In this document: in pieces, positions 2,346-59,469 of the stretch
Position numbering within the stretch: position 1 is the first letter of the stretch
Layout: each line of letters begins with the position of its first letter
Virus record (IMG/VR): IMGVR_UViG_3300038321_000157
Span: 7,929 to 71,928 of that record
Length of the DNA stretch: 64,000 nt
DNA from: a virus
Strand: one strand, 5' to 3'
Translations under genes and position numbers: made by a program
Notes under the pieces: generated by a model
The model's input: only the letters and a program-made list of their open reading frames with translations
Told to the model about the DNA's origin: nothing
Database searches by the model: none

Positions 2346-3230
2346 ATGACAATGGCAATGAATATTTTGAATGAAGTGGAATTTAAAAAGAATATGGAAA
2401 ATGCAAAAACAGAATTATCAATTGCGCTAAAAATAGCAATTGGTCATCGTTCTGTTTCTCAGTTTGCAAGAGATTGTAGAATAGTAGATGTAACATTAAT
2501 CAATGATATTTTAAAAAGAAAGATTAATGTGTTACCTGAAAGAGATTTTTTAAGAATTGTTGAAAGAACCAGTGAAGGAAGGGTAACTTATACATATCTA
2601 TGTGAGATATGTGGTTACACCAAATGTGATCCTAATGAAGATAGGAGTTGGGCAAATTATCATCCAGAGCGTGGAAGTATTTATATGGCTGATTTAGGAT
2701 TGAATAACATGGATTCTGAACAAGAAGGGGTTAGACCTTGCCTTATTATTTCAAATAACATGGGGAATAAACATAGTAGTATAATAACAATTGCACCATT
2801 AACTTCAAAAAGGAAACATAGGTTGCCTGTCCATGTTGATTTAACAGTTCAGGATGGTATGAGACAGAATTCCATTATATGTTTAGAGCAGACTAGAGTG
2901 GTTTCTAAACGTAGGTTATTTTACAATGGTACACCCATGAAGATATTGAAATTAACTGAAGAAAAAATAAATGAAGTTAATATAGCTATTGAAAAGCAAT
3001 TCGGGATTATTGATTTAATGTATAATCCAGATCATGCATTTGAATTGGTAGGACAGATCGAAACACTTGAACATAATATAAAAACGAAAAAAATTAAACC
3101 TTCCTTCTTATCTGAATTGCTTAATGGTAAACGTAAGGAATTAGTTACGTATTGTAAGAAATATAATAGGAACGAAAAGACGATTATTAATAATTACACA
3201 GGGACAAGAGATTTTGTGCCTGTAAATTAG
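2346..3230 (+). CDS. mazF: N-terminal HTH-like domain fused to a PemK/MazF endoribonuclease, with a C-terminal helical extension
   Basis: RGSIYMADL..SEQEGVRPCLIISNNMGN..IAPLTS..LPVHV..SIICLEQTRVVSKRRL aligns by eye with B. subtilis EndoA, catalytic Arg (VRP) and Thr (LTS) kept; N-terminal 'AIGHRSVSQFARDC' is XRE-like. Confidence 0.85.
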   Translation: MTMAMNILNEVEFKKNMENAKTELSIALKIAIGHRSVSQFARDCRIVDVTLINDILKRKINVLPERDFLRIVERTSEGRVTYTYLCEICGYTKCDPNEDRSWANYHPERGSIYMADLGLNNMDSEQEGVRPCLIISNNMGNKHSSIITIAPLTSKRKHRLPVHVDLTVQDGMRQNSIICLEQTRVVSKRRLFYNGTPMKILKLTEEKINEVNIAIEKQFGIIDLMYNPDHAFELVGQIETLEHNIKTKKIKPSFLSELLNGKRKELVTYCKKYNRNEKTIINNYTGTRDFVPVN

Positions 3231-3244
3231 GAGGTTGATAATAA

Positions 3245-3544
3245 ATGATTGATGAGTTAGAAATTAAAAGTTTTGATGCTAGGTTTGGAACCAGATCAAA
3301 AGTGTTTCAATGCACTAATACGATTGTTATAGAAACACCTTTAGACAGTTGGATTGTAAAAGTTACGAACAGACAAACCAGACCACTATGTTTATTGCAT
3401 AAGAACAAATTTGGAAGAATAAATAAATACCACATTCAATCTTGGAAGACAAAAATGTTTCATGTCTATGATTCTATTTACAAACATAAAGGGATGCATC
3501 TTGTAGGTGCACCCAATACATATAAAGGTAGTCAAATAAAATGA
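3245..3544 (+). CDS. Hypothetical protein translationally coupled to agrB
   Basis: GGAGG RBS; ATGA overlap with agrB. Confidence 0.7.
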   Translation: MIDELEIKSFDARFGTRSKVFQCTNTIVIETPLDSWIVKVTNRQTRPLCLLHKNKFGRINKYHIQSWKTKMFHVYDSIYKHKGMHLVGAPNTYKGSQIK

Positions 3545-4134
3545 AAAAATATTTTCGGTACTTATACACCTTAAAATACATTAAATTACTCGCATATATG
3601 TCAGCAAGATCATTACAATTATCACGTAACGAGTCTCATAAACACAAATATATGTATTATTATGGATTTAATATTTTATATGGAGCAATTAATAAAGGAA
3701 CACTCCTTATACTGGCAGGATTATTATTCCATGCGTTACCCCAAATCCTTGTTACTACACTTGCGTTTATGTCACTTAGGGGTTTTATAGGGGGATTACA
3801 TTTTGATTCATATACAAAATGTGCCTGGATTTCATTGTTATGTTTGGTTTCAATAGGGTTATTAGCAAAATATATTCCTTACAATAATATTATAAATTTA
3901 TGTGTGTTTATTTATCTGTTAGTTATTGCTTTCATTTATGCACCAGTTGAACATAAAAATAGACCACTAACAGATAAGAAAAAAATAACTTTTAAATATG
4001 TATCCATTGTAATAATTTTTGCACTATATAGTGCTCAGGCCATAGTTAATAACGATAATATTAGTAATTGCATCATGTACGGTGTTTTATTATCGGGCAT
4101 TATCGCATTGCCAATATTTAAGAAAGTCAAATAA
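3541..4134 (+). CDS. agrB: Accessory gene regulator B-type membrane peptidase/cyclase
   Basis: YGFNIL, LRGFIGGLH..S..KC (catalytic His and Cys), IYAPVEHKNRPL; multi-TM. Confidence 0.9.
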   Translation: MKKYFRYLYTLKYIKLLAYMSARSLQLSRNESHKHKYMYYYGFNILYGAINKGTLLILAGLLFHALPQILVTTLAFMSLRGFIGGLHFDSYTKCAWISLLCLVSIGLLAKYIPYNNIINLCVFIYLLVIAFIYAPVEHKNRPLTDKKKITFKYVSIVIIFALYSAQAIVNNDNISNCIMYGVLLSGIIALPIFKKVK

Positions 4135-4237
4135 TGTCGTAAATTGTCTATAAGTTTAAATTGTAAAATCGAAATAATAGTTTTAAAATAAATTTATGGT
4201 TAATTTTGTTTATAATGTTTTAATTAAAAAATTTTAG

Positions 4238-4266
4238 TTGTATTTATTTGCCACAATGGTTATAAT
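4238..4266 (+). promoter_or_regulatory. Sigma-A-type promoter
   Basis: TTGTAT-17 nt-TATAAT. Confidence 0.55.
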
Positions 4267-4338
4267 AAACAGAACAGTTGTTCTATATTAACGATGGAGT
4301 GATGTTAGAGGAATAGTGTAAAGGAGGCTTTATAATTA

Positions 4339-4566
4339 ATGTCAAATTCAAATCAAATGGTATGGGTTATTCGAAATAGGGATGGGTATTTTGTTAATGC
4401 AGACTTCAGAGCGTTATTTAATGGAAGAACAACAGGATTTGTTGGATATACAAATAAGGATAGGATGCAAAAGGATTTAGATAAGTTAGGTGAATTAGGT
4501 GAAGGGTATTATAGCGAACAGGTTTGTTTGAATGAGATTCCTAAAGGGGTAAGGATATATACATAA
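4339..4566 (+). CDS. Hypothetical protein
   Basis: ORF with AGGAGG RBS. Confidence 0.65.
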   Translation: MSNSNQMVWVIRNRDGYFVNADFRALFNGRTTGFVGYTNKDRMQKDLDKLGELGEGYYSEQVCLNEIPKGVRIYT

Positions 4567-4638
4567 AGGATATTTTAATCTGTAATATTAAATAAATAAA
4601 ATATAAAATAACAAATAGAAAGGAGAAGGAATTGTTTA

Positions 4639-5379
4639 TTGGGTAGAAAAATAATAGATTTAACGGGAATGAATTTTGAGAAATTAACAGTAATAAAAAG
4701 AGCAGAAGATTATATTTCTCCAAATGGGAAAACACAAACACAATGGTTATGTGAATGTAGTTGTAAAGATAAAAATAAAATTATTGTAACAATGGGACAT
4801 TTAACTTCTGGAAAAACTAAATCATGTGGGTGTTTAAGAAAAGAAAATATGAGTAAATTATTTAAGAAATATAACACATATGATTTAACTGGAGAATATG
4901 GAGTAGGTTATACATTAAAAAATGAACCATTTTATTTTGATTTAGAAGATTATGATTTAATTAAGGATTATTGCTGGAGTTTAGATAAAAATAAATATGT
5001 TATAACAACTTTAAACAAAGAAAAAGAAAAAACTACTTTACTTATGCATCGTTTAATCACAAATTGTTCTAATGATATGGATGTAGACCATAAATTTCAT
5101 GATCATTGGGATAATAGGAAAGAGTTTTTAAGGATAGCAACAAGAAGTCAAAATGGTATGAATAGTGGTTTACAATCTAATAATACTAGTGGTGTAACAG
5201 GAGTATATTGGAACTCGAAAAATGAAAAATGGAGAGCACAAATAACAATAAATAATAATAAAATACAATTAGGGTCTTTTGATAATTTTGAAGAAGCTGT
5301 TGAAATTCGTAAACAAGCTGAAATAGAATATTTTGGTGAATATCAATATAAAAACATTAAATCATCTGGGAAAAAATAA
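4639..5379 (+). CDS. HNH-AP2 homing endonuclease with N-terminal Cys module
   Basis: DLTG..WLCECSC..SCGC; MHRLI..VDH..DNRKEFLR; AP2 signature SGVTGVYW..KWRAQI..LGSFD..EA. Confidence 0.85.
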   Translation: MGRKIIDLTGMNFEKLTVIKRAEDYISPNGKTQTQWLCECSCKDKNKIIVTMGHLTSGKTKSCGCLRKENMSKLFKKYNTYDLTGEYGVGYTLKNEPFYFDLEDYDLIKDYCWSLDKNKYVITTLNKEKEKTTLLMHRLITNCSNDMDVDHKFHDHWDNRKEFLRIATRSQNGMNSGLQSNNTSGVTGVYWNSKNEKWRAQITINNNKIQLGSFDNFEEAVEIRKQAEIEYFGEYQYKNIKSSGKK

Positions 5380-5418
5380 ATTAAATCACTAAAATAAAAT
5401 TAACACATGTATATTTGC

Positions 5419-5448
5419 TTGACATTTTGTATATACTGGTAATATAAT
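5419..5448 (+). promoter_or_regulatory. Sigma-A-type promoter for the DGQHR/repressor operon
   Basis: TTGACA-18 nt-TATAAT. Confidence 0.55.
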
Positions 5449-5470
5449 TACATATGAAAGTATATAGGGG

Positions 5471-6799
5471 GTGTCAATAATGGTTGGAAACAAAGAAGAA
5501 CAATTAAAAAATAAACTAAAAAATGTTATCCGTGAATTTGGGTATGACAATAGTACAAAGCAGTTTGTAATGGATGAATTTAAATTACGTAATTTATCAT
5601 CCTTAAGAGCTGCTTGGGTTTTTTCTGAAAATCTTGATCTGGATACTCTAACAGAATCAGAAGATGATGCCCAATTTTTATATCTATTTTCTTTTGCTCT
5701 TAATAAAGCATTAAAAGAAAAAGATATAAATATTTTGAATGATTATCAGAGTTATTTTACCAGTGTTGAAATTAGTGAATGGGAAAATTATAAAGAAGAA
5801 AAAGAATCTGAAGATATTTTCCCTTATAATTTAAAAGATGTACAAGAAATTGTTCCTGGTCAACAATGGCAAACTAAACTTACTATACAACAATTTAATG
5901 AATTATATAATGTATTACTTTGGAATCCCAACTCACAAAGGGGATTTAAGGTAACGAAAAAAGCAATTAGAATTAATGAAAATCCTCTAAAGGTTAAAGA
6001 AATAGCAGAGAATATACTTGCAGGAACATATTATCCTGACCATATTAAAATTAATGTTGTAAAAGACGAAAATAAACCTATTTATAATCCTAAAACGAGA
6101 ATGTTAACTTTAAGGGAAGGGACAAAACTTAATATTTGGGACGGTCAACATCGAAAATCTGCAAGTGCATTAGTCTTGGTAGAAAATCCCGATATAGATT
6201 TTACATGGCCTATAGATATCACAAATCTATCAGAGATTGAAACTCACAATGCGATGGTACAAATCAACAAACAAAGTCCAATTAAACTTGATGTTATATC
6301 TACTAAAGACTATTCCAAAAATGAAAATTTAGTGCTTGATAAGATTATGGATAGTCGTGGAGATTTAGCAAGCGCAACAAAAGATACAGATGCATTTGTA
6401 AAGTCAGATCGTGCTTTAACCACAAAACCTATCCTTGCCGAAGCTATTAAAGATAATTACGATAATTTAGATTCAGCTATGCAACGTGATGAAGTTGCTA
6501 AATGGATAGTTGAGTTTACAAACTACCTCATGGGTGTCTACTCAGATGAGTTTATTGTCAATCCTTATGAAGTAAAGAAAACTTCCTATATTAATAACCT
6601 AAATATGTTCTATGGATATATTGCTCTTTCCGCAATATTGAAAGATAATAAAAATTGGAAAGAAATTCTTAAACAAAAAATTAACTCAATTGATTTTTCC
6701 GTAGACAATCCTATGTGGCGAGAAATAGGGATTATCAAAGAAAACAAAATTGGTAAACCTACAAAGAATAAACTCTATAAACTTTTTATGGAGGTGTAA
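5471..6799 (+). CDS. DGQHR (DndB-like) domain protein, SPbeta YopQ-like
   Basis: IWDGQHR motif; lies directly upstream of the MrpR-like gene as in SPbeta. Confidence 0.75.
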   Translation: MSIMVGNKEEQLKNKLKNVIREFGYDNSTKQFVMDEFKLRNLSSLRAAWVFSENLDLDTLTESEDDAQFLYLFSFALNKALKEKDINILNDYQSYFTSVEISEWENYKEEKESEDIFPYNLKDVQEIVPGQQWQTKLTIQQFNELYNVLLWNPNSQRGFKVTKKAIRINENPLKVKEIAENILAGTYYPDHIKINVVKDENKPIYNPKTRMLTLREGTKLNIWDGQHRKSASALVLVENPDIDFTWPIDITNLSEIETHNAMVQINKQSPIKLDVISTKDYSKNENLVLDKIMDSRGDLASATKDTDAFVKSDRALTTKPILAEAIKDNYDNLDSAMQRDEVAKWIVEFTNYLMGVYSDEFIVNPYEVKKTSYINNLNMFYGYIALSAILKDNKNWKEILKQKINSIDFSVDNPMWREIGIIKENKIGKPTKNKLYKLFMEV

Positions 6800-6802
6800 A
6801 TA

Positions 6803-7837
6803 TTGATGATTGAATTTCAAATTGACTCTGAAATTAAGCAAGAATATTTACAAACAAAACCAACTGCAACCGCAGAATCAGATGCTTTTATACTTCGTGA
6901 TTTTGATAATTATGAAGTACAGGTTGGTAAACAAGTTTACAATCTTAACATTTCTGAATTAAATGAAATGTTTGCTACATTGCGTAATTCTTCTAAACGC
7001 ACAGCACAAAAAAATAAATCAATATTAACCAACTACATTGATTTCTGTGTTGCAAAGAAAATTGTTCCCCATATGGAAAACAGAGCAAAATATATTGATG
7101 TTGAAAAATTTGTGTCTCGACAAGCACTATTGAACAAATTTATTTCAAAAGAAAAAGTAAGAGAATATGTAAATCTCTTATATAATTCACAAGACCAATT
7201 ACTCTTATGGTTGTTATTTATAGGAGTAAGGGGTAGAACTACTGAAGATGGCACTATGGAAGAGGTTATAAATTTAACAATAGATGATGTTAATTTTAAA
7301 GAAAATATGCTTACTCTTAGACAGAATGATGGTAAATTCCGTTTATTAGATGATGTACCTGACCACATTATAGATTTAATTAGAGAGACATACGAGCAAG
7401 AATATTATATCGAGAATAATGGTGAGATGACTAATAATCCTAGAGTGCCTAACCCTAGAAAAAGTATTATTAACAAAACTGGTGAATCAAAAACAAGAGA
7501 AACAATAGATAGATATATTTTTAGAATACCAGGAAAGAGTAAATTTGAAAAATTTAGTCCTGCTTTGCTTAACTCACGGATGATTAAAATTCAAAAGGTC
7601 GTTGACAACCGATACGTAACCTGGAGCAGTTTGTATTTTTCAGGTATGTTGCAATCGTGTATAGATATTTACAAAGAGAAGGGTGAAATCACTGATAGAG
7701 ATTTTGATAACATCTGTCTTAGATATAATTACGGAGTATCAGAAGAACCAATTGGTAAGTTAAATATTAAACAAAGTGCATATTGGTTCGTTTTAAAAGA
7801 TTTGTTTTTGCAATACAAGGAGTTACTACAATTATGA
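6803..7837 (+). CDS. MrpR/YopR-like master repressor (tyrosine-recombinase fold with degenerate catalytic motif)
   Basis: SAM-like N-terminus; 'QDQLLLWLLFIGVRG..EEVINLTIDDV' recombinase box I; box II reads 'TWSSLYFSG' with no H-x-x-R. Confidence 0.75.
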   Translation: MMIEFQIDSEIKQEYLQTKPTATAESDAFILRDFDNYEVQVGKQVYNLNISELNEMFATLRNSSKRTAQKNKSILTNYIDFCVAKKIVPHMENRAKYIDVEKFVSRQALLNKFISKEKVREYVNLLYNSQDQLLLWLLFIGVRGRTTEDGTMEEVINLTIDDVNFKENMLTLRQNDGKFRLLDDVPDHIIDLIRETYEQEYYIENNGEMTNNPRVPNPRKSIINKTGESKTRETIDRYIFRIPGKSKFEKFSPALLNSRMIKIQKVVDNRYVTWSSLYFSGMLQSCIDIYKEKGEITDRDFDNICLRYNYGVSEEPIGKLNIKQSAYWFVLKDLFLQYKELLQL

Positions 7838-8223
7838 TCTTAGAAACAATGTGGCAAAGATATAAAATACTAATATATCTAAAAAGTGAATTAGTGAAGA
7901 AAGGGTATAATTTTAAATCCCTTACTTATATCAATTCACAGATTGAATTATTAAATATATTAATCAAAGAAGAAAGTTTTAATCAATTAGAACAAATACT
8001 CCGCAAAACGAATTATAGACTTCTTAAACAAATAGAAAAAGGTGAGGAAAATTTAGTGAGTATTGTTAATCATCCTGAACAATGGAGATTATGTAAAATT
8101 GATGAACATTGTAATGAATGGTTAAATAATAACTCACTTATTTTTTCCACAGAACGAGGAGAATTTTTAGCATTTACTCAAAGTGAGTATGGACAACAAT
8201 ATATTAATAATAAATGGCAGTAA
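7834..8223 (+). CDS. Hypothetical protein
   Basis: ORF track 7783..8223; ATG 7834 overlaps the previous stop (ATGA). Confidence 0.65.
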   Translation: MILETMWQRYKILIYLKSELVKKGYNFKSLTYINSQIELLNILIKEESFNQLEQILRKTNYRLLKQIEKGEENLVSIVNHPEQWRLCKIDEHCNEWLNNNSLIFSTERGEFLAFTQSEYGQQYINNKWQ

Positions 8224-8240
8224 AGAAAGGATTGATATAA

Positions 8241-8636
8241 ATGAATATAGGTCAAAAAATCAATCAATTATTTGAACGATCTGGATATAAAAACTATGCT
8301 GATTGGGGTAAGGCAATGGGGTTGCCTGGAGATTGGTTACTTGATCTTAAAAAGAAAGATACTATAAAGACTGTAGATATTACACGTTTAATAACTATTG
8401 CTGAATATAATCAAATTACTCTTGATGAACTATTAAAAGACAATAATGATAATTATATCCTTGACATTAATAGCGGCATGGAAGATAATGACATATATAA
8501 GCTATTAGGTCAAATTCAAACGCAATTAGAAGAAAATGAAGTAAAATTTAATGGTTTTATAATGAATAAGGAAAGTAAAGAAATAACTTATGATGTAATA
8601 GACGTATTAAAAGGATTGATTGGTAATAATTTATAA
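8241..8636 (+). CDS. XRE-family HTH regulator (YopS-like position)
   Basis: MNIGQKINQL..NYADWGKAMGL..ITRLITIAEYNQITLDELL. Confidence 0.7.
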   Translation: MNIGQKINQLFERSGYKNYADWGKAMGLPGDWLLDLKKKDTIKTVDITRLITIAEYNQITLDELLKDNNDNYILDINSGMEDNDIYKLLGQIQTQLEENEVKFNGFIMNKESKEITYDVIDVLKGLIGNNL

Positions 8637-8672
8637 TATTTAAAATTTCACATAGTCATTCAGTAATTCCAC

Positions 8673-8984
8673 ATGCCTAATACATATTTAATAAGAGTGG
8701 AGAATGACAAAGTGAAATTTCAAAAAATTAAAAAAAGAAAAGTATATGAAACTTGGCAACATAAAAATAGAGAAACAGGGTTGGTAAGTTTTATTTTTCA
8801 CATACCAAATGGTAATTACCATTTTTATATTACTTGTTTTAAAAAACGTTGTGGATTAGAGCAATGTATAAAAGATAATTGTGATTTATACGTTTCTTAT
8901 AATTCATTAAAATATGGATTAATGTTTAATACTTTTGATGAATGTAGAGAAGTTGTAATCCATTGGCATAAAGATAGAGGATAA
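8673..8984 (+). CDS. Hypothetical protein
   Basis: ORF track; weak RBS. Confidence 0.45.
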   Translation: MPNTYLIRVENDKVKFQKIKKRKVYETWQHKNRETGLVSFIFHIPNGNYHFYITCFKKRCGLEQCIKDNCDLYVSYNSLKYGLMFNTFDECREVVIHWHKDRG

Positions 8985-9031
8985 GAAGAAGTTCTATCCT
9001 CATTTTTAATTAAAAATATAAAATAAATATG

Positions 9032-9059
9032 TTGACAATGATGCTGAGTGTGGTATTAT
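9032..9059 (+). promoter_or_regulatory. Sigma-A-type promoter opening the accessory-gene array
   Basis: TTGACA-16 nt-TATTAT with extended TG. Confidence 0.65.
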
Positions 9060-9146
9060 TGATATTAAGATATAGATAATTTATGTTAATATAGAATTAG
9101 CATTTGGTGCAGATTTTTGGCTTGAAAAATGGAGCATGAGTGAGTA

Positions 9147-9176
9147 TGAGGGAGATTGAGGGAGATTGAGGGAGGT
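9147..9176 (+). repeat. Three tandem 10-mers TGAGGGAG(A/G)T
   Basis: TGAGGGAGAT TGAGGGAGAT TGAGGGAGGT, followed by a 12-codon mini-ORF at 9184-9222. Confidence 0.85.
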
Positions 9177-9244
9177 AAAATTAATGTCTAAAATAATATC
9201 TGAAAAAATAATTTCAATATGAATGAAAGGAGGATGGTGATTAA

Positions 9245-9739
9245 GTGTATTTGAAAGAATGTGATACAAATATTGAAAACTTTGATGTAGCAGTCAATGT
9301 TTTATACAACGTAGTAGAACAAGAATTTAAAAAATATCCAGGGTTTAAAGGAATAATTTCATATGAAGATATTTTAAAAATATTTTACAGGTCTTCTTCT
9401 GTAGCAAATGTTTATCAAATACCAATAGAGGATTATGTTAAACTTACAATAGAATCTTACATTGCCTATGATACATTTTTGAAAAATGCTTATAATAGTG
9501 TTATACCAATAGACGGAGATAAAGCAGGTGCATATTTAAGGATATTGATTTGTAGATTATGTCGTGATGAAGATGGAAATGAAATTATTAATAATTTTAT
9601 GGAACAATTCAGAAATATTATTGTAGAATTTAATGTTAGGATTAATCCAGAAGAAAAAATCTCTTATTGTGAATCTAAGATTGGCAAAAGAAATGCTTTG
9701 ATTTTATATATTATGTTATCAGATTTTTATGAAATGTAG
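9245..9739 (+). CDS. Hypothetical protein
   Basis: ORF with GGAGG RBS. Confidence 0.65.
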   Translation: MYLKECDTNIENFDVAVNVLYNVVEQEFKKYPGFKGIISYEDILKIFYRSSSVANVYQIPIEDYVKLTIESYIAYDTFLKNAYNSVIPIDGDKAGAYLRILICRLCRDEDGNEIINNFMEQFRNIIVEFNVRINPEEKISYCESKIGKRNALILYIMLSDFYEM

Positions 9740-9780: not shown

Positions 9781-10557
9781 ATGATAGGATTACAAGAGTA
9801 TATAGTAAATAATAATGTCTCAGTTATAGAATTAGCAAAAGAAATGGAAATACGTCCTGCTACAATATGGAGATGGTTTAATGTTAATAAGGTTTCAGAA
9901 AAATATCATGATTTTCTTTCAAATAAATTTGGAATAGATAAAGATTATATAAATAGAAAAGTTAATGATATAAATACATATCAACCTAGAAGGAAAGGTT
10001 TTAATGAATATATAATAAATGGCGAAGAAACAACAATACTTATAAAAAGAAAAAATAAAGAAATAGTAGAAATGATAATTGATACCGAAGATTTATTATT
10101 ATTACAAAGTTATAATAGGGCAGTTCAAGTAATGTGGAATAATAATACTAAAACCTACTATGCTAGATTTTATATATATGATGGTATTGAAGATGGGAAA
10201 GTACGATATAAAGTATTATATATACATAGACTATTGGTTGATGCAAAGGAAGATGATTATGTCGATCATAAAGATTTAAATAGTCTTAATAATAGAAAGA
10301 AAAATTTACGAATAACACAAAATAGTCCAAATTTAAAACATAGATTAGATGCTAATTCAAATAATAAATCTGGATATCGAAGTGTACATTGGATAGAAAA
10401 ACTTCAAAAATATATTGTGCAATTAACTATTGATGGAGTTAATACAAAATTGGGAGAATTTGAACCAAATGAACTAGATCAAGCTGTAGAATTTGCTAAT
10501 AAAATGAGACAAAAATATTATGGCAGTTTTAAAGGTAAAGATGATATTATAAATTAA
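9781..10557 (+). CDS. HTH-HNH-AP2 endonuclease
   Basis: N-terminal HTH (ELAKEMEIRPATIWRW); IHRLL..VDHKD..NNRKKNLR; AP2 SGYRSVHW. Confidence 0.8.
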   Translation: MIGLQEYIVNNNVSVIELAKEMEIRPATIWRWFNVNKVSEKYHDFLSNKFGIDKDYINRKVNDINTYQPRRKGFNEYIINGEETTILIKRKNKEIVEMIIDTEDLLLLQSYNRAVQVMWNNNTKTYYARFYIYDGIEDGKVRYKVLYIHRLLVDAKEDDYVDHKDLNSLNNRKKNLRITQNSPNLKHRLDANSNNKSGYRSVHWIEKLQKYIVQLTIDGVNTKLGEFEPNELDQAVEFANKMRQKYYGSFKGKDDIIN

Positions 10558-10820: not shown

Positions 10821-11630
10821 ATGATAGGATTGCAAGAAATTATGATAAATAATAATATAAATGTTTATCAATTTTCAGAAGAATTAGGTGTGACGCATAG
10901 TACTGTATATAGATGGTTTAATGAAAATAAAGTACCTAAAAAATATTATAGTATTATTTCGGAAAAATTAAATATTAATAAGGATTATATTAATAAAGTA
11001 GTTAATGATATTAGTACACATACTTCAAGAAAAAAAGATTTTAATTTTTATAGAATAGATGGAGATATTGTTTATATTGAATTAAAAAATAAAAAAGGAA
11101 TAGTATTAGAAACACTAATTGATTTGGAAGATTTAAACCGTATTAAGGCTTTGGGAATATGTTGGAATGCTGCGTGGGCAAAAGATATACAAGATTATTA
11201 TGCGAAATCATGTGAATATTTAGGAACCAAGAACGGAAAACCAAAATATAAAATACGTTATTTACATAGAGAAATAATGAACAATCCTAAAAATATGACG
11301 GTGGATCATAAAGAACATTATATACATAGTAGTTTAGATAATAGAAAAATAAATTTAAGAATAGCAGGAAGAAATAAAAATTCTAGTAATAGAAGTGGAG
11401 AAAATAAGAATTCAAGTACAGGTGTTAGAAATGTTCATTTAATAACAAAATATGGTGGCAAGCAAGTTTATAAAGTTCAAATTATGAAAAAAGGCATTAG
11501 TTATAGATGGGAGTTTAAATTAGATCAATTTGAAGAGGCATGTGAATTTGCTGAAAGAAAACGCAAAGAATTGTTTGGTGAATTTGCTGGAAATGGAGAA
11601 AATAAAAAGGATGATAATTATGTTTTTTAA
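10821..11630 (+). CDS. HTH-HNH-AP2 endonuclease (paralogue of 9781..10557)
   Basis: Same MIGLQE start and HTH; LHREI..VDH..DNRKINLR; TGVRNVH. Confidence 0.8.
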   Translation: MIGLQEIMINNNINVYQFSEELGVTHSTVYRWFNENKVPKKYYSIISEKLNINKDYINKVVNDISTHTSRKKDFNFYRIDGDIVYIELKNKKGIVLETLIDLEDLNRIKALGICWNAAWAKDIQDYYAKSCEYLGTKNGKPKYKIRYLHREIMNNPKNMTVDHKEHYIHSSLDNRKINLRIAGRNKNSSNRSGENKNSSTGVRNVHLITKYGGKQVYKVQIMKKGISYRWEFKLDQFEEACEFAERKRKELFGEFAGNGENKKDDNYVF

Positions 11631-15150: not shown

Positions 15151-15708
15151 ATAGCAAAAGGTCAATTTAAACCATTTAATAAATATAAAATAAATGGTGA
15201 TGAAACTATAATATATATCGAAAGAAGAGATGGAAGTGTCCAAGAAACAGTTATTGATACAGAAGAATTAGAAAAAATAAAAAGTATTGGTACTCCTTGG
15301 CATAGTCATTGGGCAAGAAAAACAAAATCATATTATTGTAGATGTTGTAAATACATAAGCGAACTAAAATATAGTAAAACAATTCAAATGTCTCGATTTA
15401 TAGTAGACGCACAAGATGATGAAGTAGTTGATCATATAGATCATGACACTATGAATAATAAAAAAGAAAATTTAAGAGTAACCAAATTTATTAAAAATGT
15501 AGCAAATAGAAAAGGTGCAAACTCCAATAATAAAACTGGTGTTAGGAATGTAAATTACATAGAAAAACTAGATGAGTATTGGGTTCAAATTATGAAGAAT
15601 GGAGTAAGATATAGGTGGATATTTCCTGGCGATCAGTTTAAAGAAGCATGTGAATTTGCTGAGATTAAACGAAAAGAGATATTTGGGGAATATGCAGGTA
15701 ACGGATAA
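15151..15708 (+). CDS. HNH-AP2 endonuclease, probable ATA start
   Basis: Frame open from ATA 15151 (AKGQFKPFNKYKI...), 9 nt after AAGGAG; VDHIDH..NNKKENLR; TGVRNV. ORF track begins at 15388. Confidence 0.75.
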   Translation: MAKGQFKPFNKYKINGDETIIYIERRDGSVQETVIDTEELEKIKSIGTPWHSHWARKTKSYYCRCCKYISELKYSKTIQMSRFIVDAQDDEVVDHIDHDTMNNKKENLRVTKFIKNVANRKGANSNNKTGVRNVNYIEKLDEYWVQIMKNGVRYRWIFPGDQFKEACEFAEIKRKEIFGEYAGNG

Positions 15709-22514: not shown

Positions 22515-24395
22515 ATGGATAAAATTCAAAACCTTAAACAACAATTAGATTATCATGATGATTTGTACTATAACAAAGATAATCCTGAATTATCTGATGC
22601 AGAATATGATGCTTTAAAATCACAATATTTATCTTTAACTAACCAACAAGAATACAATTATGTACCTGGAGAAGCACAATTTAAAAAATATACACATCAA
22701 TTTCCTGTTAAATCATTAGGTAAAATTAATACTATTGAACAAGCAAAAACGGAAATTAAAAGACTTTTTCCAGTAGTTATTGAACCAAAATATGATGGGT
22801 TGACTTTAGTTTTGTATCCTGATGGGAAAATAGTTACAAGAGGTAATGGGTTAATAGGGGAAGATGTTACTTATTGTGCAAGCAAATTCGTAAATAAAAA
22901 TCATCCCTTTAAATATTTACCATTTGATTTACCTATTCGTGGTGAAGCAATAATGCCTATTTCTTTATTTAAAGAAATAAATGCAAAAAGAGAATTAGAA
23001 GGTAAAGAATTATTTAAAAATCCTAGAAATGCAATAGCAGGTATTTTAAGGAATAAAGATAATTCTAATGTACCAGAGGGTTTAAGATTTATTGCTTATG
23101 AAATTGTAGGATCAGCAAATTCTCATATTCGGCAATTATTAGAACTTAGAGAATACTTTGAGATTCCTGAAGCAGATACCATATGGAATTATAGTGAAAT
23201 AGATGATGCAATTAGTTTTATTGAAAATTTTGATCGTTTAAAATTAGATTATGAGATTGATGGTCTTGTTATTAAATCTAATAAAGCGAATGCTTTAGAT
23301 GTGTTTGGTGAAGTTGAACATCACCCGAATTCTGCTGTGGCTTTCAAATTTCCAAATCAAGGTGAGTGGAGTGTTTTAAACTCTATAACTTGGCAAACAG
23401 GCAGAACGGGTAGGGTGACTCCTGTAGCTGAATTGAAGCCTGTAGATATCTTAGGAAGCACTATAGAACGTGCTACGTTGCATAATATAGGGTATATTAA
23501 TGCATTAGGGTTACAAATAGGTGATGAAATATTAGTAGTTAAAAGTAATGATGTAATTCCTGCTGTTATTCAATGTAAAGAAACTGAAAGTAGTGAACCT
23601 ATAGAGATTATAGATGAATGTCCTTCATGTGGAAGTAAATTAAAGACTATAAATGATCAATTATTTTGTACTAACGATAATTGTCAAGCAAAATTACTTT
23701 ACAAAACATCACATATGGTTAGTCGGGATGCCTTAAATATTGATGGATTAAGTGAACAAACCGTATTAAAAATGATTGAAGCAGGATATATCCAAGAACC
23801 TTGGGATATATTTGATATTACTGAAGAACAAATTTTAAGACTAGATGGTTTTGCTAAAAAGTCTGCTAAGAAAACATATGAAGCAATTCAAAACGCTAGA
23901 AATTGCGATTTTGATAGAGCAATTTATGCAAGTGGAATTGAATTAGTTGGCAGAAAAGTAAGTAAAGATATTGCTAAAAAATTTGGTTCTTATAATGAAT
24001 TGATTAATTGTTGTTTTTTAGAAGGTGTATTATCTAAAATAGATGGTATCGGTGATAGTATTATTCAAAGTTTTGTTAATAATATTGACCAACTTGAAAA
24101 GTTAGTTAAATATCTTAATATTCAAAAACCAGAAGAAAAGAAAGAATCAACCTTTAAACCACTAGATAACTTAACCTTTGTTGTCACTGGCAACGTAGAA
24201 ACATTTAAAAACCGTAAAGAGTTAGAAGAATTAATTACTTCTCTTAATGGTAAGTTGAGTGGATCAGTTTCAAGTAAAACTAATTACCTAATTAATAACG
24301 ATGTTACTTCAAGTTCTGGTAAAAATAAAAAGGCAAAGGAATTGAATGTGCCAATTATTAGTGAAGCACAATTTAATGAAATGATAGGCAGGTAA
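22515..24395 (+). CDS. ligA: NAD-dependent DNA ligase
   Basis: EPKYDG adenylation motif, TRGNG..GEDVT, RGE, NPRNA, Zn finger CPSC, HhH repeats, BRCT (VSSKTNYLI). Confidence 0.95.
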   Translation: MDKIQNLKQQLDYHDDLYYNKDNPELSDAEYDALKSQYLSLTNQQEYNYVPGEAQFKKYTHQFPVKSLGKINTIEQAKTEIKRLFPVVIEPKYDGLTLVLYPDGKIVTRGNGLIGEDVTYCASKFVNKNHPFKYLPFDLPIRGEAIMPISLFKEINAKRELEGKELFKNPRNAIAGILRNKDNSNVPEGLRFIAYEIVGSANSHIRQLLELREYFEIPEADTIWNYSEIDDAISFIENFDRLKLDYEIDGLVIKSNKANALDVFGEVEHHPNSAVAFKFPNQGEWSVLNSITWQTGRTGRVTPVAELKPVDILGSTIERATLHNIGYINALGLQIGDEILVVKSNDVIPAVIQCKETESSEPIEIIDECPSCGSKLKTINDQLFCTNDNCQAKLLYKTSHMVSRDALNIDGLSEQTVLKMIEAGYIQEPWDIFDITEEQILRLDGFAKKSAKKTYEAIQNARNCDFDRAIYASGIELVGRKVSKDIAKKFGSYNELINCCFLEGVLSKIDGIGDSIIQSFVNNIDQLEKLVKYLNIQKPEEKKESTFKPLDNLTFVVTGNVETFKNRKELEELITSLNGKLSGSVSSKTNYLINNDVTSSSGKNKKAKELNVPIISEAQFNEMIGR

Positions 24396-38267: not shown

Positions 38268-39206
38268 ATGTCTAGATTTAAGAATTTAACAGGAGAAATT
38301 TATGGGAATTTTAAAGTTTTATATTTAGACAAAGAAAGGAGTAGTAAAACCAATAGAACCTATTGGATGTGTGAATGTCAATGTAGGTATAAAACTTTAG
38401 TAAGTAAAAGACAAGATGTGTTAAAGAAAAATAAAAATAATAAATGTCCAAAATGTGATTGTTGTTATTGTGATTTATCTGGTGAATATGGAATTGGTTA
38501 TACTTCACAAGAAATAGTATTTTATTTTGATTTAGAAGACTATGATGTAGTTTGTGATTATAATTGGATAAAAAGTGAAGGAAATTATATATATAGAAAT
38601 GTTAATTCTCAACAAGTATATTTACATAGAAGTATTATGAGTAAATATGAAAATATAGAAAGTAAAACAATAGACCACATTAATCATAATACTTTAGATA
38701 ATAGGAAAGAAAATTTAAGAGTTTGTGAACTTTATGAAAATCTTAGAAATAATAAAGTTAGTAGAGCAAGTTCAGGATATAAAGGAGTATATTATAATGA
38801 AAGAGATGATAATTGGCGTGTTAGAATATCATTAATTGATAATAAAATAAACATAGGAACATTTGATAATCTTGAAGATGCAGTTATTGCAAGGATTCAA
38901 GCAGAAAAAGAGTATTATAATGATTTTAGATATAAAGACAGAGATGAAGAAATTGAATCAAATTTAAATATAAACATTGATGAAATTAGCAATATAAAAA
39001 TAAATAAAAATTCCAAACAGTCTAAACCTGTAATACAATATAGCTTGAATAATGAATATATTAAATCATTTAATAATTTATTAGAAGCAGAAAAACTTAC
39101 AAATTGTAATTATCAACATATAAGAGAGTGCTGTGAGAATATAAGAAAAACCCATAAAGGTTATAAATGGAGTTATGGCACAGAAAGGATACAAGTTAAT
39201 GAGTGA
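38268..39206 (+). CDS. HNH-AP2 homing endonuclease with C-terminal NUMOD1-like domain
   Basis: LHRSI..IDHINHNTLDNRKENLR; SGYKGVY; KPVIQY..CC...RKTHKGYKW. Confidence 0.85.
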   Translation: MSRFKNLTGEIYGNFKVLYLDKERSSKTNRTYWMCECQCRYKTLVSKRQDVLKKNKNNKCPKCDCCYCDLSGEYGIGYTSQEIVFYFDLEDYDVVCDYNWIKSEGNYIYRNVNSQQVYLHRSIMSKYENIESKTIDHINHNTLDNRKENLRVCELYENLRNNKVSRASSGYKGVYYNERDDNWRVRISLIDNKINIGTFDNLEDAVIARIQAEKEYYNDFRYKDRDEEIESNLNINIDEISNIKINKNSKQSKPVIQYSLNNEYIKSFNNLLEAEKLTNCNYQHIRECCENIRKTHKGYKWSYGTERIQVNE

Positions 39207-46906: not shown

Positions 46907-48811
46907 ATGTATATAAAAGTTAGTTACGATCAAGAGTTCGATGATTTAATGATGTATCTACGGTCAAAATATCCGTCAAAAATATTTGATTTAGATGGAA
47001 TTGGTGAGCAAACGGATATGAGTAAATTCAGTAAGAAGTTTTTCTCAGTATCAACTACGGCAGATGCTAGTATTGATGCAAATGCTAATGTTGACGATAT
47101 AAGTGTTATTGCCTATAGTACTGAATTACCAAAACCTTTCCTTCGGTTAAATAGTTATTATATGGTTTGGAAAGAATTAAGAAGATTATTTAATTTAGAG
47201 ATTGCTAATGAAACTGTAGAAAGAAACCTCATTGGTGATATTTATATAAATGATTTTCATGGTATTGGTGCAGGACTCCCATACTGCTATAATTATTCTA
47301 CATACGATATTATGACTAAAGGTTTACCGATGGTCAAAAAAATTAAATCTTTTCCACCAAAATATCTTTATTCCTTTAAATCACAACTTGAACAATTTAC
47401 TATTATTGCAGCAAACTCAACTTTAGGAGCAACTGGATTAGCTGATTTATTAATTGTAATGAGTTATTATGTTAAGAATATTCTTAGTACATTGTCAGAT
47501 GCTAAATTTAAGTTTTCAACTAAAGAAGATGCATGGAAGTATATAAAGGAAAATTTAATTAGTTTTATTTACACTATTAATCAACCAATGAGAGGAAACC
47601 AAAGTTGTTTTACTAATATATCCATTTATGATGATATATTTTTAGAAGCAATGAAAGATGATTATATTTTCCCAGATGGTAGTGGATTAGATATAAATAT
47701 AATCAAACAATTACAAGATATGTTCTTAACTATTATGAATACTGAAATGCAAAGAACTCCTATTACATTCCCAATTACTACTGCTTGTTTTTCTATAGAT
47801 GAAAACAATAATATAAAAGACAGGGAATTCATTAAATTTATAGCAAAACATAATCAGAAGTATGGATTTATTAATATTTATTGTGGTGATAGTTCTACGT
47901 TAAGTTCATGTTGTCGGTTAAGATCAGACAAAAATAATGAATATTTTAATAGTTTTGGTTCAGGTTCAAGTAAAATTGGTAGTCTTGGGGTAGTTACAAT
48001 CAATCTCCCTAGATTGGCAATAAAGCATAAAAATAATAAAAAAACATTTTATATGGAATTAGCGCATTTAGTCCAGTTGTGTTCTAAAATAAATCATGCC
48101 AAAAGAAAATTAATTCAAAAGAGGATTGATAATGGCAATCATCCTTTATATACATTAGGTTTTATTAATATCAATACTCAATATAGTACCGTTGGTATTA
48201 ATGGATTTAATGAGTGTATAGAAATTTTAGGAGAAAATATTTTAGAGCAAAATGGAATTGACTTAGGATTAAGTATTATTGAAACTATAAATATTGAAAA
48301 CGATAAATGTGCAAAACAGTATAAAACACCACATAATTGTGAGCAAATTCCAGCAGAAAATGTATCAATTAAACTTGCCAATAAAGATAAAGTTTTAAAA
48401 TATCAAGATACATATAATATTTATAGTAATCAATTTATACCACTTACTACTAAAGCAAATGTATTAGATAGAATTAAATTACAAGGTGTTTTTGATAAGC
48501 ACTTTAGTGGAGGGGCAATTGCCCATATAAATATTGATACTCCTATAGAAGATTTAACTCAAATTGAAAACTTAATTGAGACTTGTGCAAAAATGGGAGT
48601 AGTTTATTTTGCAATAAATTATGTTATTGCTGAATGTGAAAAAGGTCATATATGTGTTACAACTAGTGATAAATGTACAATTTGTGGTGGCAATATTATT
48701 AATAAGTTTACTAGAGTAGTTGGGTTTTTAACATCAATTAAAAATTGGCATGAAGTAAGAAGGGAAAAGGATTTCCCTAATAGACAATGGTATAAGGGGT
48801 CAGATATATAA
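46907..48811 (+). CDS. nrdD: Anaerobic (class III) ribonucleotide reductase, no ATP-cone
   Basis: PYC; SSCCRLR; LGVVTINLPR; PAE; SGG; CxxC; RVVGFL glycyl-radical loop. Confidence 0.95.
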   Translation: MYIKVSYDQEFDDLMMYLRSKYPSKIFDLDGIGEQTDMSKFSKKFFSVSTTADASIDANANVDDISVIAYSTELPKPFLRLNSYYMVWKELRRLFNLEIANETVERNLIGDIYINDFHGIGAGLPYCYNYSTYDIMTKGLPMVKKIKSFPPKYLYSFKSQLEQFTIIAANSTLGATGLADLLIVMSYYVKNILSTLSDAKFKFSTKEDAWKYIKENLISFIYTINQPMRGNQSCFTNISIYDDIFLEAMKDDYIFPDGSGLDINIIKQLQDMFLTIMNTEMQRTPITFPITTACFSIDENNNIKDREFIKFIAKHNQKYGFINIYCGDSSTLSSCCRLRSDKNNEYFNSFGSGSSKIGSLGVVTINLPRLAIKHKNNKKTFYMELAHLVQLCSKINHAKRKLIQKRIDNGNHPLYTLGFININTQYSTVGINGFNECIEILGENILEQNGIDLGLSIIETINIENDKCAKQYKTPHNCEQIPAENVSIKLANKDKVLKYQDTYNIYSNQFIPLTTKANVLDRIKLQGVFDKHFSGGAIAHINIDTPIEDLTQIENLIETCAKMGVVYFAINYVIAECEKGHICVTTSDKCTICGGNIINKFTRVVGFLTSIKNWHEVRREKDFPNRQWYKGSDI

Positions 48812-54566: not shown

Positions 54567-55715
54567 TTGGCAAGAAAAAAAGTCGAAAAGAATATTGCAT
54601 ATGATGATGAGAAAAATTTATATTATGTAAATCTTGATTATGGTAAAAATGACTCAGGTAAAAGGATTAAATCAACAAAAACATTCACAAAAATTCAAGA
54701 CGCAAGACAAGCATTAAAAGAATTTGAAGCTAATAAAACTAAAAACACTATTGTTTTCCCATCTTCTATTAAATTTAAAGATTATGCTACTTATTGGTTA
54801 AATGATATTAAATCATTAAAATGTGAAGAAACTACACTCTATGGGTATAGAAATATAATTAATAATCATCTTATCCCATCATTAGGTAATCACAAACTTC
54901 AAGATTTAAAACCAACAACTATTAATAAATATTTTAAAAGAAAATATGAAGATGGATTAAGTAAAAATACAGTAAGAAAGCATTATGATTTATTAAAAGA
55001 TATATTAAAAAATGCTGTGAATGAAGATATATTAGTAAAAAATCCTTTAAATAAAATAGAACCTATTAAACCTAATAAAAAAGAAGCGAAATATTATACT
55101 AAAGAAAATTTAGCAAAATTATTTGATATTATTAAAAATGATCGTATGGAAATAGTTGTTAAATTGGCAGGTTTATTAGGATTAAGAAGAGAAGAAATTG
55201 CAGGACTCAAATGGAAGAATATAGATTTAACTAATGATGAAATTACTATAGCAGAAGTGAGAATACAAGCAGGTAAAACAGTTAAAACTTTTCAACGCAC
55301 TAAAACAGAATCTTCTTATAGAACACTTCATATACCGGAAGATATTAAAAACATACTTTTAAAAATTAAATCTGAGCAAGAAGAAAGAAAAAAGATTCTA
55401 AAAGATTCTTATTATAAAGAAGGTTATGTTATCGCATGGGAAGATGGAAGTCCATATAGACCAAATTATTTAGGTGATTTATTTACAAAAATAATCAGAG
55501 ATAATAATTTACCATCTATAGGATTACATGGATTAAGACATACGTTTGCGAGTATAGCAAATGATATGGGTGTTAATTTATATGATATTAGTAAAGCATT
55601 AGGGCATAGTCAAGTTGGGACTACTAGTGAAATCTATACACATTTATTTGATAAAGCACATAAAAAAGCTGTTAATAAAGTTGCTGATGTTTTTAAAACA
55701 GAAGAAAACAAATAA
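54567..55715 (+). CDS. int: Phage tyrosine integrase
   Basis: SAM-like domain; GLRREE; HGLRHTFA; LGHS....T..IYTH. Confidence 0.95.
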   Translation: MARKKVEKNIAYDDEKNLYYVNLDYGKNDSGKRIKSTKTFTKIQDARQALKEFEANKTKNTIVFPSSIKFKDYATYWLNDIKSLKCEETTLYGYRNIINNHLIPSLGNHKLQDLKPTTINKYFKRKYEDGLSKNTVRKHYDLLKDILKNAVNEDILVKNPLNKIEPIKPNKKEAKYYTKENLAKLFDIIKNDRMEIVVKLAGLLGLRREEIAGLKWKNIDLTNDEITIAEVRIQAGKTVKTFQRTKTESSYRTLHIPEDIKNILLKIKSEQEERKKILKDSYYKEGYVIAWEDGSPYRPNYLGDLFTKIIRDNNLPSIGLHGLRHTFASIANDMGVNLYDISKALGHSQVGTTSEIYTHLFDKAHKKAVNKVADVFKTEENK

Positions 55716-58479: not shown

Positions 58480-59469
58480 CTATGAAGCATATCGCCTATA
58501 TCCATCATATTTACTTTGCTCAGATAATTGACAATATACCTGAGTGGTATCAGGAGAACTATGTCCTAACATTGCTTGAACTAATGCTAAGTCTGCACCT
58601 GAATTTAATAAATTAGAAGCAAATGTGTGGCGGCACTTGTGAACGTGCAATTTTATATTTGCCTTATCTCCAAGATTATTAAAAATTCTTTGTATCCCTC
58701 TATTGGATAATCTTCTATATTCTTTTCTTTCAGTGACAAATAAAGCTTCACAATTATCATTCCTATTATTTAGGTATTTTTTTAAATAATGAGTTGCTTT
58801 AAAATTAAAATAAACTATTCTTTCAGAATTACCTTTTCCTATTACTTTTATTGATTGATATTTCCAATTTATATCATTAATATTTAATTGAGACAACTCA
58901 TTTAAACGGCAACCCGTTGCAATAAAAAGCTCGAATATGGCTTTTTCACGTAACGTTGTACAATTCTCTCTAAGTGTTTCTACTTGTTCTTCAGATAATG
59001 CTTTTGGTAATCTTTTTTCTTTTTTGGGAGCGTTAATTTTGTTCATAGGATTTTTTATTATTACCTCTTCTCTAACCATAATTTTAAAGAATGATTTAAG
59101 AACATATATTTTCTTTCCAATAGAACTTTGTTTCAATTTTGGAAATTTAGATAAATACAATCTAATATCATTACTTGTAATTGCAGGTAATGATTTGTTT
59201 ATATTTTTGTTAAATATATTAAGTTCTAGTTTATAAGTATCTAAAGTAATATCACTTAATCCTTCCAATTTTTTAATTGATAAAAACATATTTATGTAAT
59301 AGGATATGTCGGCATCTTCAATATTATCAGTTTTATAATTTATATTATATTTATATAATATTGAAGAAAAATGTGATTTAAGTTCTATTAAATTGATAGG
59401 AGTATCTAAAGAATTAATTGAATTTACTTCTGAAACTTTTTGTAACAATTCGTTTAATAAAGATTCCAT
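58480..59469 (-). CDS. Second tyrosine recombinase (XerD-like), catalytic residues intact
   Basis: TGCRLNEL; GKG; HKCRHTFA; LGHSS..TT.VY. Confidence 0.9.
   Translation of the reverse strand: MESLLNELLQKVSEVNSINSLDTPINLIELKSHFSSILYKYNINYKTDNIEDADISYYINMFLSIKKLEGLSDITLDTYKLELNIFNKNINKSLPAITSNDIRLYLSKFPKLKQSSIGKKIYVLKSFFKIMVREEVIIKNPMNKINAPKKEKRLPKALSEEQVETLRENCTTLREKAIFELFIATGCRLNELSQLNINDINWKYQSIKVIGKGNSERIVYFNFKATHYLKKYLNNRNDNCEALFVTERKEYRRLSNRGIQRIFNNLGDKANIKLHVHKCRHTFASNLLNSGADLALVQAMLGHSSPDTTQVYCQLSEQSKYDGYRRYAS

Follow-up and report, generated by a model that had tools for sequence, protein, structure and literature searches.

Work on the recombinase-fold repressor system of the phages SPbeta and phi3T has to date been confined to Bacillus, where the system is tied to the peptide-communication system arbitrium. 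The SroE-SroF pair (YopQ and YopR, the latter also called MrpR), its SPBRE boxes and the protein Sar have been published for Bacillus phages (PDB 8A0A, 8BJ6, 9RD5, 9RGL; PMC10516654; bioRxiv 10.1101/2025.11.27.690993), and MrpR binds SPBRE at the promoters of aimR, yopM and yorE, among others (PMC10516654). The genes mrpR, yopQ, yopP and aimR, along with yokI, have been proposed as the lysogeny core of SPbeta-like phages (cited in PMC10516654), and arbitrium in phi3T acts through the host MazF (PMC10769878). Phage-borne agr genes have been described in the C. difficile phage phiCDHM1 (PMC11945551, PMC7790227). Here we analyze, by computation throughout, a 64,000-nucleotide window of viral DNA from the IMG/VR record IMGVR_UViG_3300038321_000157, in which homologs of YopQ and YopR stand next to an agr-type cassette. 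On balance, we consider it probable that an SPbeta-like phage with a low-GC Clostridium host uses this block as its lysis-lysogeny switch.

The source phage genome is a 139,278-bp record, complete according to CheckV, and the window corresponds to its bases 7929-71928, with a G+C content of ~26%. Coordinates below are those of the window unless the full genome is named. We compared 14 YopQ-YopR lineages (referred to by L numbers) and inspected their flanks to +/-10 kb. Alignment-based scans yielded eight viral and two genome loci, whereas a single-sequence YopR search of viral contigs returned no related locus; a DNA search of the phage collection with window positions 3000-9000 returned only an HNH match.

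At the center of the block are two adjacent genes and their promoter:

5419-5448, + strand: yopQ-yopR promoter TTGACA-18-TATAAT, a consensus sigma-A promoter (12/12 match)
5471-6799, + strand: YopQ/SroE homolog, 442 amino acids (aa), DndB-like, with a DGQHR motif
6803-7837, + strand: YopR/MrpR/SroF homolog, 344 aa, tyrosine-recombinase fold without H-x-x-R

A preliminary description of the window, made from its letters alone, had seen here a DGQHR protein followed by a recombinase-fold protein lacking H-x-x-R and had related them to YopQ and YopR. Both observations hold, and both proteins are homologous to their proposed counterparts in full-length alignments. The 442-aa protein has a DndB-like (ParB/Srx-fold) domain (Pfam DndB, E value 9e-12; phrog_5732, 4e-57) and the exact DGQHR, an instance of the DGxHR motif, at residue 224; it aligns to phi3T YopQ over near full length (~390 residues) with 27% identity (E 2e-25) and is 26% identical to YopQ of the SPbeta-type Goe14. 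The 344-aa protein, encoded directly after the YopQ/SroE gene as in SPbeta-type genomes, matches Pfam MrpR_N_CB (PF22822, E 8e-14) and phi3T YopR (26% identity, E 3e-24), and in the Protein Data Bank (PDB) it aligns full length to SroF-phi3T (9rd5/9rgl, E 2e-18) and MrpR (8a0a, E 3e-9). In precomputed annotations, nearly all of its 104 close homologs carry both PF22822, the MrpR-type N-terminal core-binding domain, and PF22823, the C-terminal catalytic-like domain, a few shorter ones PF22823 only. A ten-sequence alignment placed S275..Y278 at the box-II H-x-x-R position and F279 at the next H/W throughout the clostridial clade, while the first conserved arginine (G-V-R143) is retained in the clade, unlike in MrpR and SroF. 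MrpR has N..V at the same motif and has lost recombinase activity (PMC10516654). Judged by sequence, the two homologs can be identified with high confidence as an SPbeta-type repressor pair, and the recombinase catalysis of the YopR homolog reads as lost. The promoter at 5419-5448 is kept in every relative examined, which, with its perfect consensus, indicates that the repressor operon has a strong promoter of its own.

Database labels alone could suggest a different function. The only Pfam match of the YopQ homolog is DndB and PHROG annotates the YopR homolog as "integrase", and the two genes could then form a Dnd-like defense or DNA-modification cassette. We regard this as very improbable, given that both proteins align full length to the characterized YopQ/SroE and YopR/SroF, that the MrpR-specific Pfam domains are present and the catalytic H-x-x-R is lost, that the position in the SPbeta genome plan is conserved and that no dndCDE genes were found.

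The genome plan was studied with an ORF-by-ORF (open reading frame) BLASTP comparison against phi3T, and the gene order matched genome-wide. The yopQ-yopR pair is followed ~18 kb on by yorF to yorL, then by late genes on the opposite strand (homologs of yomI, yomU/V and yonD/E) and finally by an HU-like yonN and the YonO RNA polymerase (54% identical to phi3T). The homologs of yorF-yorL are 39-67% identical to those of phi3T and include a 1312-aa DnaE-type polymerase; these genes and a ligase had been noted to follow later in the window, and both were recovered. Two enzymes of the phage are informative about the host:

22515-24395: NAD-dependent LigA-type ligase, not of the ATP-dependent YoqV type
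46907-48811: anaerobic NrdD ribonucleotide reductase

Where SPbeta and phi3T have an ATP-dependent ligase and the aerobic NrdEF, this phage has the LigA type and NrdD, a combination that fits an anaerobic host. A YopR homolog with 69% identity lies on a 149-kb contig of a Clostridium sp. metagenome-assembled genome (MAG); together with the phage NrdD, this contig indicates that the host is a low-GC anaerobic Clostridium-like bacterium.

Two of the five proposed lysogeny core genes are present in this phage. There is no yopP/SroD directly upstream of yopQ, the place being taken by an HNH gene or nothing, and a YopP search of the genome gave only weak matches to distant integrases elsewhere; the small genes sroA-C are absent. 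The earlier suggestion that the repressor core was kept thus applies to yopQ and yopR and fails for yopP/SroD and sroA-C. Arbitrium itself was not found. The complete phage gave no AimR family (PF22871) match at E <= 1, with a positive B. subtilis control, two AimR proteins used as queries (phmmer and tblastn-type searches) had no match in the phage, and no AimR was seen within +/-10 kb of the 14 related loci. No similarity to AimX/YosL was found in a search that is a weak test for such short and fast-evolving sequences. Pfam detected no tetratricopeptide repeat (TPR) in the large unassigned early ORFs, four of which lack any match and might conceivably include a very divergent receptor. The lack of an RRNPP/TPR receptor noted from the window extends to AimR in the complete phage.

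Immediately upstream of yopQ, in 14/14 lineages, there is a small gene, orf75, with a distinctive promoter:

4238-4266, + strand: orf75 promoter TTGTAT-17-TATAAT
4272-4283, + strand: LexA/SOS box GAACAGTTGTTC, 5 nt past the promoter
4339-4566, + strand: orf75, 75 aa, a new small-protein family

The window has no second perfect GAAC-N4-GTTC besides this box, and the genome has two in all. It is kept just after the -10 hexamer and before the orf75 homolog in 11-12 of the 14 lineages, amid diverged flanks. The Clostridium MAG carrying a related phage shows GAACATAAGTTC behind the TATAAT of recA and GAACATAGGTTT ahead of lexA; these boxes have the same form, so the phage box is of the host's SOS-box type. 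As far as the motif tells, the orf75 promoter would be under a host LexA box. An exhaustive profile search expanded the orf75 family to 111 clusters, mostly of 70-110 aa, where a word-index protein search had returned three relatives only. The AlphaFold2 (AF2) model of orf75 has a predicted local distance difference test (pLDDT) score of 87.5. It has no clear match among solved folds (Foldseek best E 1.3; VIA-align best Z 5.2, root-mean-square deviation 3.4 A over 66 residues), and no similarity to Sar (phi3T_99, 9rgl_F) was found by phmmer, Foldseek or VIA-align.

From family alignments of the two proteins, we predicted a complex of orf75 and the YopR homolog and obtained an ipSAE of 0.87, compared with 0.00 for the best control; in a benchmark, this score was reached by 58/80 solved complexes and 2/110 mismatched pairs. 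Three runs share at least 73% of contacts, with a partner pLDDT of at least 85. As orf75 is unlike Sar, the score is unlikely to be mere recall of the solved SroF-Sar complex. In the models, orf75 residues 30-39 are added as a beta-strand to YopR 176-184, a hairpin with K178 and the invariant R180, and YopR 302-312 and Y327 add contacts. The interface is made of the most conserved residues of both proteins (orf75 G29, G33, F34 and Y37; YopR R180, I304, C305, Y310 and Y327). This hairpin faces DNA in tyrosine-recombinase folds, which makes it reasonable to infer that orf75 occludes DNA binding. The protein is thus predicted to bind the YopR homolog, and this prediction combined with the SOS box makes a LexA-controlled antirepressor, equivalent to Sar and of independent origin, the most economical reading of orf75, in which we have moderate confidence.

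Several observations weigh against an antirepressor. With a pI of 7.8 the protein is not acidic, no Sar-like fold was found for it, its gene lies upstream rather than downstream of the repressor genes, and L016/L027 and L022 have no clear SOS box. No terminator was seen between orf75 and yopQ, so SOS transcription would also run into yopQ-yopR, and predicted binding alone does not say which of the two, antagonist or helper, orf75 would be. These points open the way to an alternative in which orf75 assists the repressor as a co-factor or chaperone, in the manner of the small pro-lysogeny Sro/YopN proteins, whose genes precede yopP-yopR in SPbeta, or in which the LexA box boosts the repressor operon, with the inducer elsewhere, for example orf131 (8241-8636, see below) or an unrecognized downstream gene. 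Consistent with this, orf75 has the position of sroA-C and not that of sar, its charge is near-neutral where Sar and YopT are acidic, readthrough into yopQ meets no terminator, and the acidic orf131 is encoded downstream of yopR, which is also the place of sar. On the other hand, small genes under LexA repression that adjoin a non-cleavable phage repressor typically encode antirepressors, the K178/R180 hairpin, inferred to face DNA, falls within the predicted interface, and orf131 has a canonical DNA-binding fold and not a mimic fold. Sar, moreover, is a LexA-controlled antirepressor (bioRxiv 10.1101/2025.11.27.690993). We consider the co-factor alternative unlikely and retain orf75 as the candidate antirepressor.

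Two further features of this region were recorded. The orf75 profile also weakly matches 4-7 stretches of proteins of 600-2300 aa (P0159, P0166, P0171 etc.); the stretches resemble beta-hairpin repeats of cell-wall-binding type, and orf75 may derive from such a repeat unit. Upstream of the SOS promoter, positions 4125-4190 hold the motif TGTCG(A/T)AA (one to two copies) and a promoter-like TTGTAA-17-TAAAAT, both kept at the equivalent place in L009, L011, L013-L016 and L022. Since GTCG is rare in DNA of 26% G+C, the motif may be the operator of another regulator, orf131 or YopQ.

SroF and MrpR bind A-tract boxes (bioRxiv 10.1101/2025.11.27.690993; PMC10516654), and we searched the phage for similar elements. 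Exact k-mer counting showed no strong repeat, and a box surfaced only in a mismatch-tolerant search of intergenic DNA: a 24-bp element (T/A)ATTAAAA-n-TATAA(A/T)ATAAATATA with two short A-tracts. A position weight matrix (PWM) found 37 sites compared with ~1.5 in local dinucleotide shuffles, a contrast inflated by the PWM having been trained on the same genome. All 37 sites are co-oriented with the local genes, 29 of them are intergenic, and each lies directly before a -35 hexamer or directly before a ribosome-binding site. When phi3T was scanned with its published 26-bp SroF box (bioRxiv 10.1101/2025.11.27.690993), the same two architectures appeared. Two sites flank the block:

1153-1176, + strand: A-tract box, PWM score 15.4, followed by a TAGACA-17-TAATAT promoter (to 1211) ahead of the genes for a 266-aa membrane protein and an AgrD-like peptide
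9008-9031, + strand: best-scoring A-tract box, PWM score 25.3, directly adjoining the TTGACA-16-TATTAT promoter (9032-9059) with which the next early operon opens

The box at 9008 has a counterpart at the same place in L007, L009, L011, L013 and L014, and that at 1153 at the equivalent place in L011 and L014. Boxes are kept in relatives with 55-93% YopR identity; at 52-53% identity there are none in L015 and one in L016. In SroF-phi3T, DNA is read by T22 and K233/F234, and the aligned residues here, T23 and K250/F251, are conserved. These patterns argue, with moderate confidence, for the A-tract boxes being the operators of the YopR homolog, and the box at 1153-1176 is a candidate point of repressor control over the peptide cassette. 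Along with the inflated shuffle contrast, it counts against this assignment that a contiguous 20-nt promoter element read by a phage polymerase or sigma factor would look identical. Two other sequence patterns were discarded as operators: palindromes ATAAAA-N6-TTTTAT, with three occurrences only in the window, and the word AATCATTATAA, which does not form a coherent family. The leader between the promoter at 9032-9059 and the ORF at 9245 contains a short tandem run, GAGGGAGATT GAGGGAGATT GAGGGAGG, at 9128-9177.

The preliminary description had placed an agr cassette where arbitrium normally lies, and the position is indeed equivalent: the cassette is 1.3-4.9 kb upstream of yopQ, where phi3T has aimR-aimP-aimX. 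Its order is DUF5317, the 266-aa membrane protein, a 48-aa AgrD-like ORF, a helix-turn-helix (HTH)-MazF fusion, orf99 and AgrB, with these recognizable members:

2038-2184: AgrD-like ORF, 48 aa, with an amphipathic leader, SHTLF and a NEPRIP tail, kept in L011 and L013
2346-3230, + strand: HTH-MazF/PemK fusion, 294 aa (Pfam PemK_toxin, E 1.6e-21)
3541-4134, + strand: AgrB homolog, a peptide-processing membrane protease (Pfam AgrB, E 1.2e-36), the only AgrB of the phage

The AgrD-like ORF has no NCBIfam or Pfam match, and the complete phage contains no AgrC-type kinase (HATPase_c_5) and no LytTR regulator. The agr/MazF-yopQ-yopR linkage is found in the same order in ~9 of the 14 lineages, down to 35% YopR identity, and in nearly every relative with sufficient flanking sequence a gene with a MazF domain occurs upstream of yopQ. 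The position, the lack of AimR and the linkage support the earlier proposal that the communication module had been replaced by one of agr type; the relatives without AgrB and the lack of a visible link from peptide to repressor speak against it, and the word "replaced" assumes an arbitrium-bearing ancestor. A functional replacement of arbitrium by agr is plausible, and from sequence features we give the agr cassette low to moderate confidence as a communication input.

The evidence against such a role comes mostly from the relatives. L016/L027, L029 and L030 keep the MazF gene, orf75, YopQ and YopR without AgrB, and L022 has only an AgrB-like fragment, at a cut contig end upstream of its MazF gene. 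In L009/L010 (72% YopR identity), an IS605 element and unrelated genes stand in place of the cassette; a remnant of orf99 beside the IS605 makes this look like a secondary loss. With AgrB missing from several relatives, agr is not obligatory for the switch, and as many of these lineages bear MazF, the MazF-domain gene, not agr, is the most consistently linked upstream element. In addition, no sensor, receptor or output linking the peptide to YopQ/YopR is visible. The main rival explanation is accordingly that agr is an accessory "moron" that manipulates or eavesdrops on the host agr, as proposed for phiCDHM1, and sits at a permissive insertion site with no lysis-lysogeny role. It would account for the absence of AgrB from L009/L010, L016/L027, L029 and L030, all of which keep orf75-YopQ-YopR, for the HNH and IS605 insertions that the cassette region has also taken up and for a phage that has neither kinase nor response regulator. 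The Clostridium MAG with a related phage has AgrB loci of its own, and agr genes unaccompanied by agrA have been described in phages before (PMC11945551). This explanation is possible but doubtful in view of the constant order and position of the cassette relative to yopQ in ~9 lineages, even at 35% YopR identity, the apparent secondary nature of the loss in L009, the conserved A-tract box preceding the promoter of the membrane-protein and AgrD-like genes and the lack of any other communication module in the complete genome. The specific proposal that the clostridial clade runs SroE/SroF with a kinase-less AgrB/AgrD and HTH-MazF in place of arbitrium and host MazEF, and with orf75 in place of Sar, is put forward tentatively and is, taken with all its parts, somewhat improbable.

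Downstream of yopR, three more genes and an insertion further upstream complete the region:

4639-5379, + strand: HNH-AP2 homing-type endonuclease (phrog_99, E 1.6e-40)
7834-8223, + strand: orf129, 129 aa, its ATG at 7834 overlapping the yopR stop (ATGA)
8241-8636, + strand: orf131, 131 aa, XRE-type HTH and a helical C-terminal domain, pI 4.6
8712-8984, + strand: orf90, a conserved basic small protein, last gene of the block

The small ORF reported after yopR is real, with 61-80% identity in relatives, though it starts at ATG 7834 and not at 7783; it has no Pfam, PHROG or Atlas match. The XRE regulator was likewise correctly recognized. It is no homolog of YopS: the two give no alignment at E <= 100, and orf131 is on the same strand as yopR, unlike the divergent YopS. 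Pfam HTH_26 matches orf131 below threshold (E 0.006) and its profile reaches only E 0.14 against PDB sequences, so confirmation of the HTH had to come from a search by fold. In the AF2 model (pLDDT 82), five helices form an XRE domain, which superposes at ~2 A on SinR, P22 c2 and 434 repressor; the best whole-chain structure matches are the phi106 AimC repressor (9sf2), DdrO and SinR, with weak Foldseek E values of 0.01-0.07. Palindromic repeats resembling GTATATAC occur on both sides of the yopQ promoter and inside it (5395-5470). They are present in this phage, L009, L013 and L014, all with orf131, and not in L011; there are none in L015 and L016, both without orf129 and orf131. The repeats are a possible autoregulatory operator for the HTH protein orf131. 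After orf90, a weak hairpin and T-run at ~8979-9007 was read from the letters and not called by a terminator scan.

The HNH-AP2 gene is a mobile insertion between orf75 and yopQ, absent there in L009, L011 and L013-L016. The early region as a whole is rich in HNH/AP2-type homing endonuclease genes (4639-5379, 9781-10557, 10821-11630, 15388-15708 and 38268-39206). Elements of IS605/TnpB type lie beside the repressor block in L015 (11259-13313, also with a resolvase) and L009 (6488-7649), and the L015 insertion occupies the place of orf129. No SprA-type serine integrase was seen in the phage, which has three intact tyrosine recombinases, at 54567-55715 (+), 58480-59469 (-) and full-genome 119721-120644 (-) (Phage_integrase, E 2e-20, 4e-40 and 6e-36). 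The gene at 54.6 kb, placed where the coding strand switches, is the likeliest integrase. Outside the window, full-genome positions 121225-123100 adjoin a tyrosine recombinase gene and comprise ~1.9 kb without a convincing ORF; the one other perfect GAAC-N4-GTTC of the genome lies inside, at 121495. This stretch may be an attachment region, a regulatory region or an RNA gene.

We propose that the parts would work together as follows. YopQ and YopR, by their homology, would form the repressor pair, cotranscribed with orf129, orf131 and orf90 from their own consensus promoter. The YopR homolog would silence early operons through the ~37 co-oriented 24-bp boxes, as MrpR and SroF do at SPBRE, and the box before the membrane-protein/AgrD promoter would mirror the control of aimR by MrpR. 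DNA damage would remove LexA from the box that covers the orf75 promoter's start site, and the orf75 product would then bind the beta-hairpin region of the catalytic-like domain and take the repressor off DNA, the role of Sar in phi3T performed by an unrelated protein. The MazF fusion and the kinase-less agr probably provide an input of cell density or physiological state, as their position and comparative distribution suggest.

The same repressor pair is thus present in a clade of ~130-150-kb phages of anaerobic Clostridia without arbitrium, a natural experiment separating the core of the switch from its interchangeable parts. The apparent core consists of YopQ and YopR with a repeated A-tract operator and a small binder under SOS control; what appears interchangeable is the communication module, the family of the antirepressor, yopP and the type of integrase. 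A phage MazF beside the switch echoes arbitrium acting via the host MazF, and MazF as an intrinsic part of the circuit becomes testable; the orf75 family offers a concrete candidate for an antirepressor, and its predicted interface is defined. We found no paper on this clade of SPbeta-like phages from Clostridia, on the orf75 family or on the linkage of agr/MazF to the switch, and we see the candidate operators and the SOS-controlled predicted repressor-binder as testable additions, beside an intriguing conserved MazF/agr association.

In comparison with the SroE-SroF system, the locus likewise has a DndB-like gene next to a recombinase-fold gene, with order and genome-plan place unchanged, the MrpR-specific N-terminal domain, a lost H-x-x-R, an A-tract box that recurs in many co-oriented copies at early promoters and a small SOS-box gene beside the repressor. 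It differs in having only 22-27% identity, a clostridial host, the first arginine retained and a different box sequence, in lacking yopP/SroD, sroA-C and yokI while adding orf129, orf131 and orf90, and in having a tyrosine-type integrase instead of SprA. Like Sar (phi3T_99; 9RGL chain F), orf75 is small, has a host SOS box in its promoter and is a predicted binder of a recombinase-fold repressor. Unlike Sar, it is not acidic and is encoded upstream of yopQ, Sar being downstream of yopR, and its predicted contact is the addition of a beta-strand to the repressor hairpin in contrast to the DNA mimicry of Sar. The orf131 protein resembles AimC, SinR and DdrO (PDB 9SF2, 1B0N, 6RNX) in its XRE HTH followed by a helical C-terminal domain and differs from them in having no sequence similarity and weak whole-chain Foldseek E values. 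As in phiCDHM1, AgrB and AgrD-like genes occur in a clostridial phage without AgrA; unlike there, the AgrC kinase is also missing, and the cassette lies inside an SPbeta-type lysogeny region and is conserved across the clade. From arbitrium (PMC10769878), the locus differs in the lack of AimR, AimP and AimX, in a peptide system of AgrB/AgrD type and in a MazF domain that, unlike that of host MazEF, is phage-encoded and HTH-fused. It nevertheless resembles arbitrium in having a putative secreted-peptide cassette immediately upstream of the repressor operon, an associated MazF-type ribonuclease and a candidate repressor box in the promoter of the signaling genes.

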